Below, piece by piece: positions 20,214-26,707 of a DNA stretch of 32,000 nt. Position 1 is the first letter of the stretch, and every line of letters begins with the position of its first letter. The DNA is from Fibrobacteria bacterium. GTDB lineage: Bacteria > Fibrobacterota > Fibrobacteria > UBA11236 > JADFYW01. The stretch is from positions 61,677 through 93,676 of the forward strand of contig JBNKOC010000032.1 of NCBI GenBank assembly GCA_050294405.1. The letters run 5' to 3'. Both the position numbers and the translations under genes were made by a program. Below the pieces are notes generated by a model. It was not told where the DNA came from and did no database searches. It was given only the letters and a program-made list of their open reading frames with translations.

Positions 20214-21212
20214 ATGTTTCTCGACCAATCTGTAATTGACTTTAAAAGCGGCGATGGCGGCGGCGGTATGAAACATTTCCGCAGAAGCCGTAACAACCCT
20301 AAAGGCGGACCCGATGGAGGGGATGGCGGCAGAGGCGGCCATATAATTTTAATAACATCGGAAAACCTCCACACCCTGTATGACATGAATCAAAAGCGCA
20401 AGTTTAAAGCCCAAAACGGAGATAGAGGTGGCCCCAACTTTGTGAAAGGAAAAGATGGTTCCGATATTATTCTGGAAATTCCAGTAGGAACTCTTATTAA
20501 AAATGCGGAAACTCTGGAAGTCATAGCCGATTTGGACAAACCGGGAATGCGCTACACGCTGTTAAAAGGAGGCCAGGGAGGTATTGGCAATGCCCAGTTT
20601 AAAAACTCTCGTATTCGAGCTCCTGAAACAGCCACCCCGGGTGGAAAAGGCCAACATCTATTGGTGCAGTTGGAGCTTAAGCTATTGGCGGATTGCGGGC
20701 TGGTGGGTTATCCCAATGCAGGAAAAAGCTCTTTGGTTAGAGCCCTTTCCAACGCCACACCAAAAGTGGGAGATTTCCCTTTTACCACCTTAAAACCTTC
20801 CCTGGGAATTGTAAAAGTCTCCCCCCATGAGAGTTTTGTTTTGGCGGATATACCTGGTATTATTGAAGGCGCCGCAGAGGGCCGTGGATTGGGAAACCAG
20901 TTCCTCCGCCACATAGAAAGATCGGGCTGTCTGGCATTTGTTTTAGACCCCAGCACAAAACCACTCTACCAACAATATAAAGAGCTGGTTACAGAGCTAA
21001 GAAACTACCAGCCTTCTCTGCTTTCACGACCTCGCCTTATTGTGGTAAACAAAATGGATTTAGGGGAGCCTGAAATCGAAAAGGAACTGGAAAGGGAGCC
21101 CTATCCCCTGGTAAAAACATCCACCTTGTCTCAAATTGGGCTTAGCGATTTTAGCCGCGCGGCCTGGGAACTGATTAAGCCCAAAAAAGAAGAAAGCGCC
21201 TGGAGTAATTAA
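20214..21212 (+). CDS. obg: GTPase Obg/CgtA
   Basis: Gly-rich Obg fold (SGDGGGG...GGPDGGDGGRGGHIIL), G1 GYPNAGKSS, G3 DIPG, G4 NKMD. The ATG directly abuts the stop of the regulator gene. Confidence 0.92.
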   Translation: MFLDQSVIDFKSGDGGGGMKHFRRSRNNPKGGPDGGDGGRGGHIILITSENLHTLYDMNQKRKFKAQNGDRGGPNFVKGKDGSDIILEIPVGTLIKNAETLEVIADLDKPGMRYTLLKGGQGGIGNAQFKNSRIRAPETATPGGKGQHLLVQLELKLLADCGLVGYPNAGKSSLVRALSNATPKVGDFPFTTLKPSLGIVKVSPHESFVLADIPGIIEGAAEGRGLGNQFLRHIERSGCLAFVLDPSTKPLYQQYKELVTELRNYQPSLLSRPRLIVVNKMDLGEPEIEKELEREPYPLVKTSTLSQIGLSDFSRAAWELIKPKKEESAWSN

Positions 21213-22201
21213 AAACCCATTTCCCTTTTTAAGTTTTCCATATAGGGCCCGGCGATGGCTCTGGCTTTTTCGGCTCCCTTTTTAAGCACCTCATCCAGAT
21301 AATCCTTGTTGTCCATTAACTTGAAAAACTCTTCTCTGGGTTTTTCCAGTTGGGCATTTAAACTTTCAAAAAACATTTTTTTAGCCTGGCCCCAGCCCAT
21401 TCCCCCGGCTTCATAGGTTTTGCGGACCTCGGCATCTTGCTGCCCATTTAAAAACAAGCGATGTAAAGAATATACATAGCTTTCCTCCGGATTTTTTGGC
21501 TCTTCGGGAGTCTGGCTGTTGGTTACAATTTTGTTAATGAGTTTTTGCAGTGGCTTGGGCTGTAAAAACAGGGGTATGGTATTCCCATAACTTTTACTCA
21601 TTTTTCGGCCATCCAGACCCACTATGGTTTCCGCATGTTCACTGATTTTAGCTTCCGGCAAAACTAAAAGAGGTTTTCCGTAATGGTTGTTAATTCTATC
21701 GGCAAAATCCCGGGCAAATTCCAGATGTTGTTTTTGATCTTGTCCAATGGGAACCACATTGGCGCTAAAGAGCAAAATGTCTGCTGCCATAAGCACAGGA
21801 TAGCTGTAAAAACCCATATTCACACCATCGTCCAAATCCTTACCCGCTTCCTGATTTTTAGTCATGCGGTCCTTGTAGCCGTGGGCCCGATTCATAAAAC
21901 CTTTGGGGGCAAAACAGGATAGGAGCCAGCTCAACTGAGTGATTTCCGGAACATGGCTTTGCCGGTAAAAGATGCAGTTTTCGGGGTCGAGACCTAAAGC
22001 CAGCCAGGTGGCCCCCACGGTGTAGATAGATTCATTAAAATCCTCTGGGGCGGGAGTTGTGGTTAAAGCGTGATAGTCCGCGATAAAGTAAAGAGGCTCA
22101 TAATCTTTGGAAAGTTCAAGAGCCGGACGTATGGCCCCCAGCCAATTTCCAATATGAGGCATGCCTGTGGGCTTAATGCCCGTTAGTGATCGTAATTTCA
22201 T
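21209..22201 (-). CDS. trpS: Tryptophan--tRNA ligase
   Basis: Class I signatures GIKPTGMPHIGNWLGA (HIGH variant) and KMSKS in a protein of ~330 aa. Start placed at ATG 22201 (MKLRSLTG...); the track start at 22207 is a TTG. The 3' end overlaps obg by 4 nt (convergent). Confidence 0.88.
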   Translation of the reverse strand: MKLRSLTGIKPTGMPHIGNWLGAIRPALELSKDYEPLYFIADYHALTTTPAPEDFNESIYTVGATWLALGLDPENCIFYRQSHVPEITQLSWLLSCFAPKGFMNRAHGYKDRMTKNQEAGKDLDDGVNMGFYSYPVLMAADILLFSANVVPIGQDQKQHLEFARDFADRINNHYGKPLLVLPEAKISEHAETIVGLDGRKMSKSYGNTIPLFLQPKPLQKLINKIVTNSQTPEEPKNPEESYVYSLHRLFLNGQQDAEVRKTYEAGGMGWGQAKKMFFESLNAQLEKPREEFFKLMDNKDYLDEVLKKGAEKARAIAGPYMENLKREMGF

Positions 22202-22238
22202 GTCCAAAATTTAAAAAAAACTTGAGTCTTGTCTTTCT

Positions 22239-22265
22239 CAAATCCTTCGTTTTGTTGAGGATTTG
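22239..22265 (-). terminator. Hairpin between the RT gene and trpS (candidate terminator of the RT operon)
   Basis: CAAATCCT (22239-22246) and AGGATTTG (22258-22265) form an 8-bp stem with an 11-nt loop. The T-tract on the minus strand lies ~20 nt away, so the terminator call is weak. A second 7-bp hairpin (CACAACC 22301-22307 / GGTTGTG 22319-22325) sits just after the RT stop. Confidence 0.3.
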
Positions 22266-22339
22266 TTCTGTTTTTAACGAGTTATTAAATATGCCAAAGC
22301 CACAACCTCTATTTAGCTGGTTGTGCCATCCACCTAGAT

Positions 22340-23341
22340 TTAATTCAATAAAGCGTGTTCTTGCTCAAACCAATTCAAATCTTTATTCAGAATAGTATTC
22401 GGCTTTATTGTTTTTTTATCCTTCAATTTTTTTTTATATAAAACTTTATAATAACAGTTTAATTGCTCAAATTTATTTGGGAGTATTTGTCTAACATACC
22501 CAATCTTCCCCAAAAGTCTTTGGGTATCTTTTTGTGTAATAGATCCGCTTTGCTTATGCTTACCGACCATCTTCATTATTTCATAATAATGTTTGTTTGG
22601 TATTAACAACTCTTTTTCTGGGCCGATGATAGGTCCAGTAACTGTTTTATACTTCTTTTTTGAAAAATATTTTGTTTTTTTCTTTTTTATATTTAGCCCA
22701 GCTCTTTTCAATTTGTTATCAATCAACAAATGAAAATCTTTTGATATAGGATTGTTAGTTGAAAAAGTCATATCATCAACGTATAGCGAAAAAAGCATTT
22801 GCCTGTCTTTCGCTTCTTTTGATATTTTATTAAAAAGGTTTGAATGTGTCCAGTAGGCTAAAGTTTGGCTCAAATGGCTACCTGTTGGGATGTGATCTGA
22901 ATAGCATGTAAGGTTTGCCAACAACCATGCCACATCATCACTCATTTTAAACTGATAGCGAAAAAGCCTGAACACGTGCTCCTTTTTACAGTTTGTATAA
23001 AAGCTTTCAATGTCAGTCGCCAACATGTAACTATTACTTACATGATATTTTGCGTTATCAATACTAGACACCCCTTTTTTCCCTGAAAACAAATACTCTG
23101 GTGTCTGAATTTTCATCATCAATTGTTGTAATCGAAAGTGGATTTTTTTTCTTAGGTGTATTGGCTCTTGGACTTCTCTAGTCTTAGCACCTTTCTTCGC
23201 ATCAAAAACTCTGTAAAAATTTGTGTCCGTTAGCGATGCAAGCTCTCTTACCTCTATTTTCAATATTTGACATAACCTTCTTTTATTAGAAAGCTTATAT
23301 AAAGGGCTGGAAGTAATTGGATATAATTTATGCCGTTGCAC
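22340..23341 (-). CDS. Retron-type reverse transcriptase (stand-alone RT domain, no fused effector domain)
   Basis: RT palm motifs: YRVFDAKKGAKTREVQEP (motifs 1-2), LATDIESFY (catalytic Asp), IPTGSHLSQ, and YVDD (aa 187-190, nt 22772-22783). It also has the NAxxH (IDNAKYH) and VTG (KTVTGPIIG) signatures I associate with retron RTs. There is no maturase, endonuclease or other domain. The GTG start lies 14 nt inside the 3' end of the upstream HTH gene. Confidence 0.8.
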   Translation of the reverse strand: MQRHKLYPITSSPLYKLSNKRRLCQILKIEVRELASLTDTNFYRVFDAKKGAKTREVQEPIHLRKKIHFRLQQLMMKIQTPEYLFSGKKGVSSIDNAKYHVSNSYMLATDIESFYTNCKKEHVFRLFRYQFKMSDDVAWLLANLTCYSDHIPTGSHLSQTLAYWTHSNLFNKISKEAKDRQMLFSLYVDDMTFSTNNPISKDFHLLIDNKLKRAGLNIKKKKTKYFSKKKYKTVTGPIIGPEKELLIPNKHYYEIMKMVGKHKQSGSITQKDTQRLLGKIGYVRQILPNKFEQLNCYYKVLYKKKLKDKKTIKPNTILNKDLNWFEQEHALLN

Positions 23342-23630
23342 TTTCTATCTTTTGTAGAAATTGTATTGTTTTCTTTCGGACAAGATCTTTAAATTTTCGC
23401 TTACCTTTATCAGCTTCTAAATCTTCTGCAAAAAACAAAATCGAAGAAGGTGTTGTTTTAAATATTTTAGCGTACTTTCGTATTAACTCCAAAGAGGGTT
23501 CCTTTTTCCCGTTTTCAATCTCTGACAGATAACTAGGGGATATACTCAAATCAGCCGCTAAGTCGTAAGATTTAATGTCATGAAATTTTCTAATTAATCT
23601 AAGTGCTTCATTTACCATAGTTATAATCAT
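23328..23630 (-). CDS. XRE-family helix-turn-helix protein, translationally coupled to the RT
   Basis: Classic XRE HTH: LRLIRKFHDIKSYDLAADLSISPSYLSEIENGKKEPSLELIRKYAKIF. 100 aa with a basic C-terminal tail. Overlaps the RT start by 14 nt. Confidence 0.8.
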   Translation of the reverse strand: MIITMVNEALRLIRKFHDIKSYDLAADLSISPSYLSEIENGKKEPSLELIRKYAKIFKTTPSSILFFAEDLEADKGKRKFKDLVRKKTIQFLQKIESATA

Positions 23631-23651
23631 TGAGTTAAAAAAAATAGGAAG

Positions 23652-23792
23652 CTAGTCGCCAAAAACCCAGATGAACAGTCTAACCAAAAAAAGAATTACC
23701 TTGATAATTACAAGTCTCCATATTTTTCGTTGACTTTTTTTCTTTTCAGCAACAGGACTACGGGCTAATAGGTTAATGTGTTTAATAATCAT
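23652..23792 (-). CDS. Unannotated 46-aa peptide with a basic N-terminus and one C-terminal TM helix (below the ORF-track size cut-off)
   Basis: Hand translation gives MIIKHINLLARSPVAEKKKSQRKIWRLVIIKVILFLVRLFIWVFGD*. The ATG at 23792 is preceded by AAGGAG (23798-23803) with a 5-nt spacer. The stop lies 21 nt upstream of the HTH ATG on the same strand. Confidence 0.5.
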   Translation of the reverse strand: MIIKHINLLARSPVAEKKKSQRKIWRLVIIKVILFLVRLFIWVFGD

Positions 23793-23866
23793 TTTTTCTC
23801 CTTTCCAGACTTGGGTTACCTACACGAGACATTCGCACAGGCCTAATTCAAGTCTCTCACAAGAAA

Positions 23867-24091
23867 GGTCCGTACCGTAATCCTATTCACCTCCTATTTG
23901 TTTCGCCACCGCTCTCACAGCGGTGGCATGAAATGATTGCGGAAGGGGTTTATTCAAAAGTTAAGTAGCCAATCTACCAACGGAAGGAATCAACCCTACC
24001 TCTGCAAAAAAATTGAGCATTACCCAGAAAGTAAAACTCACAGGCTTCCGCCCACTTTAGCTTTTCAGCTTTGTGAATTACGGAACCTATC
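23867..24091 (-). ncRNA. Candidate structured non-coding RNA (retron msr/msd-like leader) upstream of the peptide-HTH-RT genes
   Basis: There is no credible ORF. The 5' segment GATAGGTTCCGTAATTCAC (24091->24073) is complementary to GTGAATAGGATTACGGTACGGACC (23890->23867) over 6+5+3 bp, interrupted by bulges. Internal hairpins: AGCT-GAAA-AGCT (24059-24070); GGGTTGATTC/GAATAAACCC (23946-23996); GCCACCGC/GCGGTGGC (23905-23927). It begins at the predicted transcription start. Confidence 0.4.
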
Positions 24092-24100
24092 AACAACATG

Positions 24101-24129
24101 AATATAAGATCATATTCAATTTTTTGCAA
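24101..24129 (-). promoter_or_regulatory. Sigma70-like promoter driving the leader-peptide-HTH-RT unit
   Basis: On the minus strand: TTGCAA (24129->24124), a 17-nt spacer, then TATATT (24106->24101). The predicted start near 24092-24094 coincides with the 5' inverted-repeat arm of the leader. Promoter rules in this phylum may differ from E. coli. Confidence 0.4.
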
Positions 24130-24143
24130 ATAATATTTGCAAA
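24123..24143. promoter_or_regulatory. Perfect palindrome (9-bp arms, 3-bp spacer) overlapping the -35 element; candidate operator for the XRE HTH protein
   Basis: TTTGCAAAT-aat-ATTTGCAAA read directly from the sequence. The promoter-proximal arm (24123-24131) contains the -35 TTGCAA hexamer. Confidence 0.45.
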
Positions 24144-24377
24144 TAGCGAATTTATTTTTGGGTAATCAAGGGCACGGCGTGCTTCGCACATGGTCACGGG
24201 CTCGAACTGCGTGTGAGCATGGCTGGACGGATCTGTTTTCTACGCGGTATGGGAAAGACCCAGGATACCTGGCGAAGCGATAGTGTAAAGTAAGACGCAG
24301 GGAGCTTTGCTTTCAAAGCGGCCGGATTGCTTCACCCTTTTTCATGGCCTTAGCGCGAAGGTGGGGTATCTTGGGAC

Positions 24378-24805
24378 TTAACTTTCCTCGGTAGATTTTC
24401 TCTCCAGTCTTGCGGGGTGGCTTTTGGTGTGTACTTCCATAGCCTGTACGTATCCTATATCAGCTCCGCCTTCAAGCATATGAATGGCACAGCTATGGCG
24501 AAGTAAATGGCAAGCCCCTATTTTTTTGCGTGCCGGATTCTTAGATATGTCGCATTATTATATCGACAAGATGCCCGGCACTAAGTATTCCCCTAAGACA
24601 ATTATAAACAAATGGCCTTCCCCGAGTATTTTAACTAGCCTTGGTGATTCCCTAAGAAATTTTTCCACCCAGAACTGCTCCCGGGGTCCAAGGAGTGTTG
24701 GAGCTGAATTTAAAATGAATTAAATTTGACTTTCCATTATCAACTTTAGGTGTGACAACTTCCCAAAAAAAGTTTTTTTTAAAACAACAATTTCAACCCT
24801 AAATT
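24378..24805 (-). pseudogene. Decayed tyrosine recombinase/integrase (frameshifts, stops and an internal deletion removing the catalytic Tyr region)
   Basis: Minus-strand translation fragments: FRVEIVVLKKNFFWEVVTPKVDNGKSNL (box I-like, with Arg); PREQFWVEKFLRESPRLV...HLFI; KNPARKKIGACHLLRHSCAIHMLEGGADIGYVQAM (HxLRHS box II); and EVHTKSHPA*. VQAM joins directly to EVHTKSHPA, so the LGH...IYTH segment carrying the Tyr nucleophile is missing. Two in-frame stops and at least one frameshift separate the fragments. The upper boundary is fuzzy. Confidence 0.6.
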
Positions 24806-25126
24806 AAAAGCACCACCACTATTCTGTGTAATTTCGCAGATAATTCATGTTTTATCTAAGATTTTGCAAATTATCGAAATGGGGACAGCGGGCATAGCCA
24901 AAAGGAAATTAGTGCCTAAAGCTCCAGTAAAAAGGTATATTTAACCCAAAAAAATTACTGTTTTGCTGAATTACTCGTTTAAATGCCAGAGAGTGAAAAA
25001 ATTGTAGACTTTTTGATAAGCTAATATCACCATCTAAATCTAGTTTAATCAAAGCAAGTTCTTTATTCAACTTTCAATTGTTAATTATCCATATCACTAA
25101 ATTTTTATCAATCAAAAGTTAAAAAA

Positions 25127-26707
25127 ATGGCATATTTTAGAGTCTTTATCAAAAGTATTTGCATTGCGTTTGCCTTGGTTTCAAATGCGATCTCACAAAT
25201 AGAGCCCTGTCAAACCCTGAGTTGCGATACCCTGGCAGTTAAAGAAATTTTAGCTCTAAACGGAATAAGTAACCCTGGATTAAATGGTGTGACAATTGAC
25301 ACTTTGACAAATAGGGTCATTCGATTTGGATATGGATTTGATACCATTCCCCCGCAGATAGGTAGGCTATCTGAGCTAAAACATTTATCAATATACGGAA
25401 ACCAATCGAATATTTTAGACTTAACTAGCTTGCCAACTGAAATGAGTTTATTATCGAAGTTGGAATTATTAGAAATAAAATTTGTAAACTGGACTATTCC
25501 CCCCAAAGAAATTGGCCTCATACCCAATTTAAAGCACCTACTTGTAACCTCCTGTAGTTTAGTTGATTTGCCTGACGAGTTAACAAATCTGCCTTTGGAA
25601 TTTTTGGACATATCTTATAATAATTTTGAAAATTTACCAGATGTAATTTTTGAAATTAGCACACTTAGAAAATTTGGATCAAGAATAAACCCAATCGAAA
25701 ATATTCCACCTGAAATAGTTCAATTAACTGAGTTATGTTCTTTATATGTAACCAATAGTTCAATAGTAAAATTACCCGAAAATATTGGAGATTTAAAAAA
25801 TTTAAAATATTTGGAAGTATCAGGGTCTAAGTTAACAGTTTTGCCTGTTAGTATTGGAGATCTGGATAGCCTTCAAGAGCTGCTAGTTTTTGACAATGAA
25901 CTTAAGTCTTTACCACCAGAAATAGGTAACCTGCAAAATTTGAAAAAGCTCAGTATTCACGAAAATTATTTTGAAGAACTGCCTGCGGAAATAGGCAACC
26001 TTTCAAAGCTTGAAACTTTAAATGTCCGCAACAACCTGTTAACAGATTTGCCTTCGGAGATTGCAACATTATCAAATTTGGACAGGTTACACCTCCAAAC
26101 AAACAATATTTCCTATTTAAGAGAAGAGTTATTTACCCTGGAAAAATTGACCATTTTAGATTTGAGTCACAATCAATTGACTGAAATTCCCCCTAGTATT
26201 TCAAAATTGAATAATCTAACCCATTTATATTTAGCCTTTAACGGTTTATCAGATTTGCCATTAGAACTAACTAACATGCCCAATTTATATGCCATGGATT
26301 TAGCCTTTAATAATTTTTGCAATTTGCCAGATACACTTATCGAATGGCTTTCTACTCAAACCGCATATCTGGGAAACCCTAACACATATGAGTATATCAT
26401 GGAAACTCAAAGACTTGACTCCGTAACCTATTGTGATGGGAGTGAAATTAATGTAAAAACGGCATTCCCCTTATCAAGATCAAAAATTTATCAATATCAA
26501 CTCAATAGTGACTTTTACATAATTTTTGAAAGTTCTAGCTCAAAAAATGTGGAAATTTATAACTTGGAGGGTCGAATAGCTGCCACTTTTTATGATGTTA
26601 AAGGGCGACTAAGAATTTCAAAAGGTTCTATGCCTAATTCCATCTATTTTGTAAGAGTATTTGATGGTGACGAGACGTACACAACGAAAATTCTTTTTGG
26701 TAAGTAA
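25127..26707 (+). CDS. Secreted leucine-rich-repeat protein with a T9SS C-terminal sorting domain
   Basis: Signal peptide (ICIAFALVSNAISQ). About 14 tandem 23-aa LRRs of the LxxLxxLxLxxNxLxxLPxEIGxL type (nt ~25358-26341). C-terminal ~70 aa fit a T9SS CTD (VEIYNLEGRIAATFYD...SIYFVRVFDGDETYTTKILFGK). Confidence 0.85.
   Translation: MAYFRVFIKSICIAFALVSNAISQIEPCQTLSCDTLAVKEILALNGISNPGLNGVTIDTLTNRVIRFGYGFDTIPPQIGRLSELKHLSIYGNQSNILDLTSLPTEMSLLSKLELLEIKFVNWTIPPKEIGLIPNLKHLLVTSCSLVDLPDELTNLPLEFLDISYNNFENLPDVIFEISTLRKFGSRINPIENIPPEIVQLTELCSLYVTNSSIVKLPENIGDLKNLKYLEVSGSKLTVLPVSIGDLDSLQELLVFDNELKSLPPEIGNLQNLKKLSIHENYFEELPAEIGNLSKLETLNVRNNLLTDLPSEIATLSNLDRLHLQTNNISYLREELFTLEKLTILDLSHNQLTEIPPSISKLNNLTHLYLAFNGLSDLPLELTNMPNLYAMDLAFNNFCNLPDTLIEWLSTQTAYLGNPNTYEYIMETQRLDSVTYCDGSEINVKTAFPLSRSKIYQYQLNSDFYIIFESSSSKNVEIYNLEGRIAATFYDVKGRLRISKGSMPNSIYFVRVFDGDETYTTKILFGK

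Follow-up and report, generated by a model that had tools for sequence, protein, structure and literature searches.

Introduction

What can be the role of an operon that encodes a reverse transcriptase (RT), a helix-turn-helix (HTH) protein and a tiny peptide, preceded by a structured leader and accompanied by no enzymatic effector? This question is raised by a 1.8-kb unannotated stretch within a piece of bacterial DNA of 32,000 nucleotides (nt; the window, to which all coordinates refer). The unit lies on the minus strand, its genes reading from high to low positions. An initial annotation of the window recognized a retron-type RT, but considered the unit unusual and mechanistically unexplored, and its small peptide an addition to the published description of the type. 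The analysis presented here indicates that the locus is very probably a Type VI retron, as judged from its sequence. It is likely, with somewhat less assurance, that this retron is intact, has the canonical order small protein (SP), HTH and RT, and serves as an anti-phage module, most plausibly through abortive infection. A stretch without annotation is thereby explained as a complete defence system.

Type VI retrons were described as the association between a clade-3 RT and an HTH protein of the Cro/C1 type (cluster 2_1, 91-110 amino acids, aa), together with small accessory proteins (Mestre, 2020, NAR 48:12632). The same study defined the NAxxH (region X) and VTG (region Y) motifs as signatures of retron RTs; no Type VI non-coding RNA (ncRNA) was found at that time, and the accessory proteins were thought to be antitoxin-like (Mestre, 2020). 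In Retron-Vpa2 of Vibrio parahaemolyticus, the toxin is an SP of 55 aa that has a hydrophobic helix at its C-terminus and is encoded together with msr-msd inside a hybrid RNA (hyRNA) of ~470 nt (Zhang, 2025, 10.1101/2025.10.22.683967). The Vpa2 multicopy single-stranded DNA (msDNA), whose msd was mapped to a long stem-loop of 63 nt, accumulates upon infection and is needed for SP translation via its 23-nt 5' stem-loop; the authors proposed that 7-nt direct repeats (DR) operate this riboregulator (Zhang, 2025). SP-HTH-RT has been recognized as the canonical Type VI arrangement, in which two inverted repeats (IR1 and IR2) pair around the SP gene and a stem-loop lies just upstream of the 5' repeat, and the SPs have been sorted into the clusters cl2075, cl2760, cl3272 and cl3897 and a 'Large' lineage (Garcia-Rodriguez, 2026, 10.64898/2026.04.27.721009). 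Retron Sen3, of the cl2075 lineage, is controlled post-translationally: its single-stranded DNA (ssDNA) and SP are both made constitutively, and its HTH and SP form a toxin-antitoxin pair that is independent of RT and ncRNA (Garcia-Rodriguez, 2026). Anti-phage defence dependent on RT, ncRNA and effector has been shown for Vpa2, Eco12 and Sen3 only.

Since the lack of an enzymatic effector, the tiny peptide and the structured leader are all published hallmarks of Type VI, the present locus is not unusual in these respects. The small accessory proteins were already part of the 2020 description, and an SP toxin within a hyRNA and the SP-HTH-RT order with IR1-IR2 are known from Vpa2 and Sen3, respectively.

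Assignment to the Type VI Retrons

Assignment of the RT to Type VI is a placement by profile hidden Markov models (HMMs). The PADLOC model RT_VI matched the RT with 273.7 bits (E=3.8e-82) over profile positions 1-278 of 279, about twice the score of the runner-up, RT_II-A (128.8 bits, E=5.8e-38). The models of the sister types scored 90.6 bits (RT_V, E=2.8e-26) and 71.2 bits (RT_IV, E=2.2e-20), and every one of the best 25 PADLOC matches was a retron RT model. Pfam returned RVT_1 alone, NCBIfam gave retron models at sub-threshold scores, and the sequence matches in the PDB were retron RTs throughout, none of them Type VI. Similarly, the HTH protein matched PADLOC HTH_VI with 101.7 bits (E=4.6e-30) over 91 of 92 profile positions, the second-best model being capH with 34 bits, and Pfam HTH_3 with E=3.7e-12. 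An HTH-associated retron type had been mentioned in the initial annotation; the two full-length matches bear this out, and the profile comparison proposed there places RT_VI first by far.

The translated RT carries NAxxH as IDNAKYH, the catalytic YVDD, and VTG as TVTG. In an alignment of 41 homologues, N96, H100, V188, D189, D190, T235 and G236 are invariant and A97 is nearly so; the motifs by which the RT had been recognized as retron-type (NAxxH, VTG and YVDD) stand on invariant or nearly invariant columns. The three open reading frames (ORFs) follow each other head to tail in the order SP, HTH, RT (Table 1), with 21 nt between the SP end and the HTH start and an overlap of 14 nt between the HTH end and the RT start. 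These distances, the ORF sizes and starts, and the position of YVDD are all as first described, and so is the absence of an enzymatic effector: the partners of the RT are the HTH protein, a small basic and hydrophobic peptide, and the structured leader.

In the public record JBNKNQ010000016.1 (metagenome-assembled genome, MAG, GCA_050293925.1), which was used for comparison of gene calls, SP and HTH are annotated as genes, and the RT as a protein of 307 aa that starts at an internal TTG. This call drops 26 conserved N-terminal residues. Because the RT N-terminus is conserved across the 41 homologues (at M1, Y7, S12, P13, L17, K20, L23 and L27), the GTG start is the right one and the public start is too short, which calls for a correction of the public gene model; the long form also agrees with the RT_VI profile.

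Related loci were collected from genomes (63) and metagenomes (80). The HTH gene lies directly upstream of the RT gene, or overlaps it, in 118 of the 139 loci with an RT ORF, and several of the remaining loci are cut by a contig end. At least 104 of these 118 loci have an SP-like ORF 2-100 nt before the HTH gene, with an ATG start and usually a Shine-Dalgarno (SD) sequence; the encoded peptides are basic in their N-terminal half and have a hydrophobic helix on the C-terminal side. The nearest relatives come from MAGs of Chitinispirillaceae, Bacteroidota and spirochaetes, with RT identities of 43-50%. The initial annotation had suggested looking for such co-occurrence among homologues, and it is found for the HTH gene, the SP-like ORF and the RNA elements described below. 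More distant RTs (34-36% identical) were also seen on plasmids of Enterococcus, Staphylococcus and Aeromonas (CP012386.1, NZ_CP050488.1, NZ_CP118062.1, LC735978.1), several of them unannotated or named just 'reverse transcriptase family protein'.

Table 1. Positions in the window of the retron genes, the RNA and promoter elements, and neighbouring features
Feature	Position	Strand	Description
RT	22340-23341	-	333-aa retron reverse transcriptase, Type VI clade (profile placement), GTG start
RT catalytic YVDD	22772-22783	-	encoded motif
HTH	23328-23630	-	100-aa Cro/C1 (XRE)-type helix-turn-helix protein, Type VI family (profile placement)
SP	23652-23792	-	46 aa, ATG start; sequence MIIKHINLLARSPVAEKKKSQRKIWRLVIIKVILFLVRLFIWVFGD
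SP start codon	23792-23790	-	in a predicted 4-bp stem; AUG pairing probability 0.57-0.71 in silico
SP Shine-Dalgarno sequence	23806-23798	-	GGAAAGGAG
Riboregulator	23798-23868	-	predicted anti-SD:SD helix, DR2 internal loop, inner hairpin 23855-23807
Anti-SD:SD	23868-23862 : 23806-23800	-	CCUUUCU : GGAAAGG, predicted 7-bp helix; SD pairing probability 0.67-0.99
DR2	23861-23854	-	UGUGAGAG, internal loop abutting anti-SD, mostly unpaired
IR1	23889-23904	-	GAAACAAAUAGGAGGU, 5' arm of predicted long-range pairing, 4+11 bp with IR2
H1 hairpin	23905-23927	-	GCCACCGCU-GUGAG-AGCGGUGGC, 23 nt, 9-bp stem, loop unpaired
DR1	23919-23912	-	UGUGAGAG, in H1 loop, mostly unpaired
Long imperfect hairpin	23937-24007	-	candidate main msd stem-loop; predicted helices, analogy with the 63-nt Vpa2 msd stem-loop
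5' hairpins	24089-24014	-	predicted fold
IR2	23637-23652	-	GCUUCCUAUUU...UUUU, starting within the SP TAG stop codon, then U8 tract; whole element 23630-23652
hyRNA	23625-24096	-	~470 nt, inferred ends; 5' structured domain, template candidate, riboregulator, SP coding sequence, 3' repeat and U-tract
Sigma-70-like promoter	24101-24129	-	-35 TTGCAA (24129-24124), 17-nt spacer, -10 TATATT (24106-24101); consensus scan
Operator-like site	24136-24150	-	TTCGCTATTTGCAAA, 6 nt upstream of -35 box; family consensus TTCGC-N5-GCGAA
Perfect 10-1-10 palindrome	24123-24143		TTTGCAAATA-T-TATTTGCAAA, operator right half and -35 region
Tyrosine-recombinase fragment	24381-24554	-	58 aa; Pfam Phage_integrase PF00589, E=8e-5, below curated cut-off
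trpS	22207-21209	-	neighbouring gene

Structured Leader and Hybrid RNA

The leader folds far better than shuffled sequences (z=-4.4 and -6.2), the lower of these values belonging to the fold of 24096-23625, whose minimum free energy is -145.5 kcal/mol. Transcription would start at ~24094-24097, and the span from ~24094 to the U-tract, ~470 nt, equals the size reported for the Vpa2 hyRNA. Within this RNA, the H1 hairpin lies directly 5' of IR1, 1 nt before which it ends, and carries DR1 in its loop; DR2, identical to DR1 over 8 nt, adjoins the anti-SD. The U-tract that follows IR2 is probably the 3' boundary of the hyRNA. Together with the IR1:IR2 helix it could form a terminator-like element, which would explain why the hyRNA far exceeds the downstream mRNA in published RNA-seq.

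Two features ascribed to the leader at first need revision. It is not strictly free of ORFs, as a mechanical ORF of 51 aa with a TTG start occupies 23974-24129. The arms of the terminal inverted repeat that had been noted do exist, at 24128-24116 and 24016-24003; the repeat that is conserved is IR1/IR2, which flanks the SP gene. As an RNA feature the former repeat, which derives from the A/T-rich palindromic motif TTTGCAAA, was rejected: its 5' arm lies upstream of the presumed transcription start at ~24094 and is for this reason probably outside the RNA. No retron msr family was found by a search of region 22000-25200 with Rfam 15 at a permissive threshold, which gave chance-level matches only.

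A further sequence, AAUCAUUU (23938-23931), just upstream of H1, is complementary to the SP start AAAUGAUU (23794-23787) and to the HTH start AAUGAUU (23632-23626); SP and HTH both begin with Met-Ile-Ile. This pairing could provide an alternative masking of either start codon, or could be due to chance in AU-rich sequence.

Conservation of the RNA Elements among Related Loci

Statistics on RNA, promoter and SP features were computed on a non-redundant set of 66 loci. In the closest 20 relatives the elements have a common order: H1 with DR1 as its loop, IR1, anti-SD, DR2, inner hairpin, SD, AUG, stop codon and IR2. The sequences of the inverted and direct repeats vary from locus to locus. For the inverted repeats, compensatory variants occur at the same positions (IR1/IR2: AUAGGAGG/CUUCCUAU, GAGAGG/CCUCUC, GGGAAG/CUUCCC, AAGGGG/CCCCUU, UAAGAAG/CUUCUUA and UUGGGA/UCCCAA). 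Pairing of IR2 with the IR1 window of its own locus averages -19.7 kcal/mol, against -14.4 kcal/mol with the IR1 windows of other loci. Out of 66 partners, the own IR1 ranks first in 14 loci and within the first three in 25; in the window studied here it ranks third, two cross-locus partners scoring better.

The direct repeats were compared between the 42 nt ending at the IR1 start and the 26 nt after the anti-SD. A common word of at least 6 nt is present in 47 of the 66 loci, against 16% of cross-locus pairs, and one of at least 7 nt in 32 of the 66 (48%), against 5.7%; the words of at least 6 nt represent 32 different sequences. The DR1/DR2 pair thus co-varies, the two copies agreeing inside a locus while the word itself changes between loci. 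Such co-variation is expected if cDNA made from one copy has to base-pair with RNA of the second, and is a requirement of the ssDNA-riboregulator model. Finally, 42 of 66 loci have a U-tract, taken as 6 or more T in 8 nt, in the 40 nt that follow the SP stop codon, against 5 and 2 of 66 in control regions; this tract could set where the hybrid RNA ends.

Promoter and Operator

The initial annotation described a promoter overlapped by a perfect palindrome, and both were recovered: the palindrome covers the -35 region of a sigma-70-like promoter (Table 1), and its half TATTTGCAAA is repeated 11 nt apart. The notion of an operator held in a modified form, as a conserved site does adjoin the -35 box, its conserved core being TTCGCTATTTGCAAA (24150-24136) and not the 21-bp palindrome as such. 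When one mismatch was allowed, the family consensus of this site, TTCGC-N5-GCGAA, was recovered 230-430 nt upstream of the SP start in 39 of the 66 non-redundant loci; two control regions of the same loci gave 0 of 66 each, and shuffles 0.5%. The site is always upstream of a TTG-type -35 box, at a distance of 6-8 nt; this box often reads TTGACA, and a TATAAT-like box comes after it (for example in L003, L024, L033, L037, L066, L068, L072, L093, L108, L140 and L144). In some loci a second full operator, or a GCGAA half-site upstream, is present in addition, and apparent 'flipped' versions of the operator resolve as such an extra upstream half-site. The alternative that the palindrome is an RNA hairpin was rejected because the distance between the motif and the -35 box is fixed.

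None of the 12 related loci without an HTH gene has the consensus; their RTs are also more distant. The closest solved relatives of the HTH protein are the double-stranded-DNA-binding XRE repressors DdrO, ClgR and CylR2, which suggests that the Type VI HTH probably binds the operator TTCGCTATTTGCAAA. If so, the protein that restrains the RT in Vpa2, or neutralizes the SP in Sen3, would also set the transcription of the hyRNA. A word search of the Vpa2 and Sen3 preprints found operator, palindrome and autoregulation in neither.

The Small Protein

The N-terminal half of the SP is basic and its C-terminal helix, containing LVIIKVILFLVRLFIWVF, is hydrophobic. On the Kyte-Doolittle scale its KD19 value of 2.56 is the highest among the 66 non-redundant SPs (median 1.58), while its N-terminal net charge of +7 equals their median. 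The initial annotation had called it a transmembrane peptide; the hydropathy threshold is indeed passed, and the membrane label itself remains an interpretation of this value. By word search, neither of the two preprints has anything on insertion into a membrane or on a target there: 'transmembrane' was absent from both and 'membrane' occurred in one only, within the wet-lab methods.

The SP had no family match in any protein library scanned (PADLOC, Pfam and NCBIfam), and does not contain the LWKHRK motif shared by the SPs of its nearest relatives. By eye, its C-terminal tail ILFLVRLFIWVFGD resembles LLLIIRAFVRLFGNN of locus L078. As judged from sequence features, it is the positional and compositional equivalent of the SPs of the related loci, homology not being demonstrated, and it may represent a distinct SP family. 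Since it has 46 aa, against 75-79 aa in the named clusters, its likely home is the heterogeneous 'Large' lineage, which includes Vpa2. By analogy with Vpa2 and Sen3, the SP is presumed to be the toxin.

It was also seen by eye that the SP gene has a strong SD, and that none precedes the HTH gene (23631-23650) or trpS (22208-22230). The SP SD may be kept for pairing with the anti-SD as much as for ribosome binding.

Genomic Context and Host

The retron unit is located between trpS and a gene for a leucine-rich repeat (LRR) protein of 526 aa. With a GC content of 0.35, it is poorer in G and C than the core genes on its right (0.45). A decayed fragment that matches the catalytic region of tyrosine recombinases (HLLRHSCAIHMLEGGADIGYVQ) is found upstream of the retron in a stretch of broken reading frames. 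This is the dead integrase of the initial annotation: a fragment of 58 aa among broken frames is present, and its identification as an integrase is weakly supported, its Pfam match being below the cut-off. A search for mobile-element boundaries found no tRNA and no att-like flanking direct repeats near the unit.

Clues to the host were taken from regions 20214-21212 and 25127-26707. The Obg protein has its nearest named relative in a Fibrobacterota MAG, at 56% identity, and is ~48% identical to Obg of Bacteroidota; the LRR protein ends in a weak match, below cut-off, to a type-IX-secretion sorting domain. Based on this Obg identity and this tail, the host is probably a deep-branching member of the Fibrobacterota-Bacteroidota group, related to Fibrobacterota. 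The SP-HTH-RT/hybrid-RNA design of Type VI would thus extend to a deep-branching, probably Fibrobacterota-related lineage.

Discussion

Family membership, gene linkage, and the presence and co-variation of RNA and promoter elements come directly from the computational comparison. How the system would work can be outlined on the model of Vpa2, and on balance we lean towards a translational switch of that type. A sigma-70-type promoter would make the hyRNA of ~470 nt, with the adjacent operator probably bound by the HTH protein. Pairing of IR1 with IR2 would close this RNA around the sequence that codes for the SP, and the RNA would probably end at the U-tract past IR2. In the resting state, RT and HTH would be bound to the RNA, the HTH protein limiting reverse transcription, and the SP would stay untranslated, its SD GGAAAGG being paired to the anti-SD CCUUUCU. 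Upon infection, ssDNA copied from the template would accumulate, the likely signal being phage recombination proteins or inhibition of RecBCD. By analogy with Vpa2, the long hairpin (24007-23937) and H1 together are a candidate for the template, at 24007-23905. The 5' stem-loop of the ssDNA would carry CTCTCACA, the complement of DR1, and would pair with DR2; this pairing would open the anti-SD:SD helix and permit translation of the SP, which, via its hydrophobic C-terminal helix, would arrest or kill the cell. In this scheme we infer the transcript ends, the template assignment, the binding of HTH to the operator and the pairing of ssDNA with DR2.

Several observations weigh against this interpretation. 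The nearest RT in the databases is only ~50% identical to that of the window. Transcript ends, msDNA and SP toxicity are all deduced, and neither a priming G nor an msr could be assigned in the leader. The leader has hardly any sequence similarity to its counterparts in relatives: an nhmmer comparison with the upstream regions of the whole collection matched L003 only (E=0.0012). MAFFT alignments of upstream regions were too poor for a consensus structure or a covariance model; with RNAalifold, 9-19 such regions yielded the anti-SD:SD helix only, or nothing, so that structural conservation is judged from scripts that use anchors and cross-locus controls. When 703 fragments of the window were scored with a profile built from the 13 nearest SPs, the window SP came first, with an E-value of 0.35 that is not significant. 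In addition, the ribosome-binding site (RBS) of Sen3 is sequestered in silico and its SP is nevertheless constitutive (Garcia-Rodriguez, 2026).

This last point bears on the strongest alternative, in which the locus would function like Sen3: SP and ssDNA would be made constitutively, the HTH protein would be a post-translational antitoxin, and the trigger would be a loss of RecBCD activity. Gene order and IR1-IR2 architecture fit Sen3, in which the HTH-SP pair acts as toxin-antitoxin independently of RT and ncRNA. An operator next to the promoter is moreover typical of autoregulated type II toxin-antitoxin modules. Because Sen3 combines a sequestered RBS with a constitutive SP, the RNA features do not settle the mechanism. 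They nevertheless favour control of the Vpa2 type over the Sen3 type, as a co-varying DR1/DR2 pair beside the anti-SD is predicted by the Vpa2 switch, while the Sen3 model proposes no function for the pair. The SPs of the cl2075 lineage, to which Sen3 belongs, also have 75-79 aa, and the 46 aa found here are nearer to the 55 aa of Vpa2. Sen3-like control thus appears unlikely, though it deserves more weight than the two readings that follow.

It is much less probable that the unit is left stranded in a decaying mobile element, as a remnant or a selfish addiction module, providing no current defence and kept only because loss of the HTH protein would be lethal. The low GC content relative to the neighbouring core genes, the adjoining broken integrase fragment and the occurrence of the exact element in one genome only would agree with such a history. 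Against it, none of the three ORFs is broken, the RT has all of the family-invariant residues, and promoter, operator, riboregulator and the two pairs of repeats are likewise intact; this speaks for continued selection on the system as a whole. As for an RT of the abortive infection (Abi)/UG/DRT, diversity-generating retroelement (DGR) or group II class beside an unrelated XRE regulator, to which weak and partial NCBIfam matches to Drt3a and Drt2, far below their cut-offs, might point, it is effectively refuted by the RT_VI score (at most 129 bits for any other model, with retron RTs in all of the best 25 matches), the presence of invariant NAxxH and VTG, the specificity of the HTH_VI match and the conserved HTH-RT linkage in 118 of 139 loci.

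Returning to the Vpa2-type retron, we advance one extension tentatively. It combines a transcriptional layer exerted through an HTH-bound operator, a DR1/DR2 pair that would act as a freely re-programmable address of 6-9 nt, and an SP variant that would insert into the membrane; an address of this kind is what a comparison of loci should show for a natural toehold switch triggered by ssDNA. According to the word search, the operator, the direct-repeat co-variation and the U-tract after IR2 are absent from the Vpa2 and Sen3 preprints; they are incremental additions, obtained by computation alone. The picture of a Type VI retron is unchanged by this locus, which is a divergent member of a recently explained system. 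More generally, the comparison set provides sequence-independent support for RNA elements that were proposed from two enterobacterial/vibrio systems.

Comparison with Known Systems

The closest parallel, by published description, is Retron-Vpa2. In both systems, promoter, structured RNA, SP, HTH and RT form one operon, and inverted repeats close a hybrid RNA of ~470 nt that contains the SP coding sequence. Short direct repeats are present in both, one in the template loop and one in the riboregulator; the 23-nt 5' stem-loop of the Vpa2 msDNA has its counterpart in the 23-nt H1; and both SPs are small with a hydrophobic C-terminal helix (55 aa in Vpa2, 46 aa here). The differences concern the host, Vibrio in one case and a probably Fibrobacterota-related uncultured bacterium in the other, the SP, which is more hydrophobic here than in any of 66 relatives, and the repeats, which the preprint describes as sequence-conserved whereas they vary and co-vary among the relatives of the present locus. 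In addition, an operator is conserved here, and the word search found no mention of one in the Vpa2 preprint.

Sen3 shares the gene order and the IR1-IR2 architecture. Its upstream stem has 5 bp, against 9 bp here, and the cl2075 SPs carry an N-terminal extension and come from Beta- and Gammaproteobacteria. The Type VI of the 2020 classification and of PADLOC agrees in its clade-3 RT with NAxxH and VTG, its upstream Cro/C1 HTH and its optional small protein, but its three named small-protein clusters have 75-79 aa.

The sister clades Type IV (two-transmembrane effector) and Type V (cold-shock) have related RTs and a small non-enzymatic partner, which in Type IV is a membrane effector. They differ in that RT_VI scores far higher on the present RT, that no two-transmembrane or cold-shock gene is found here, and that the effector lies upstream inside the RNA, whereas theirs is downstream of the RT. 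Finally, engineered toehold switches and natural riboregulators offer a functional analogy only: an SD held in a stem with a single-stranded toehold, here DR2, for a nucleic acid acting in trans. Unlike in those devices, the trigger here would be an ssDNA reverse-transcribed from the same transcript.

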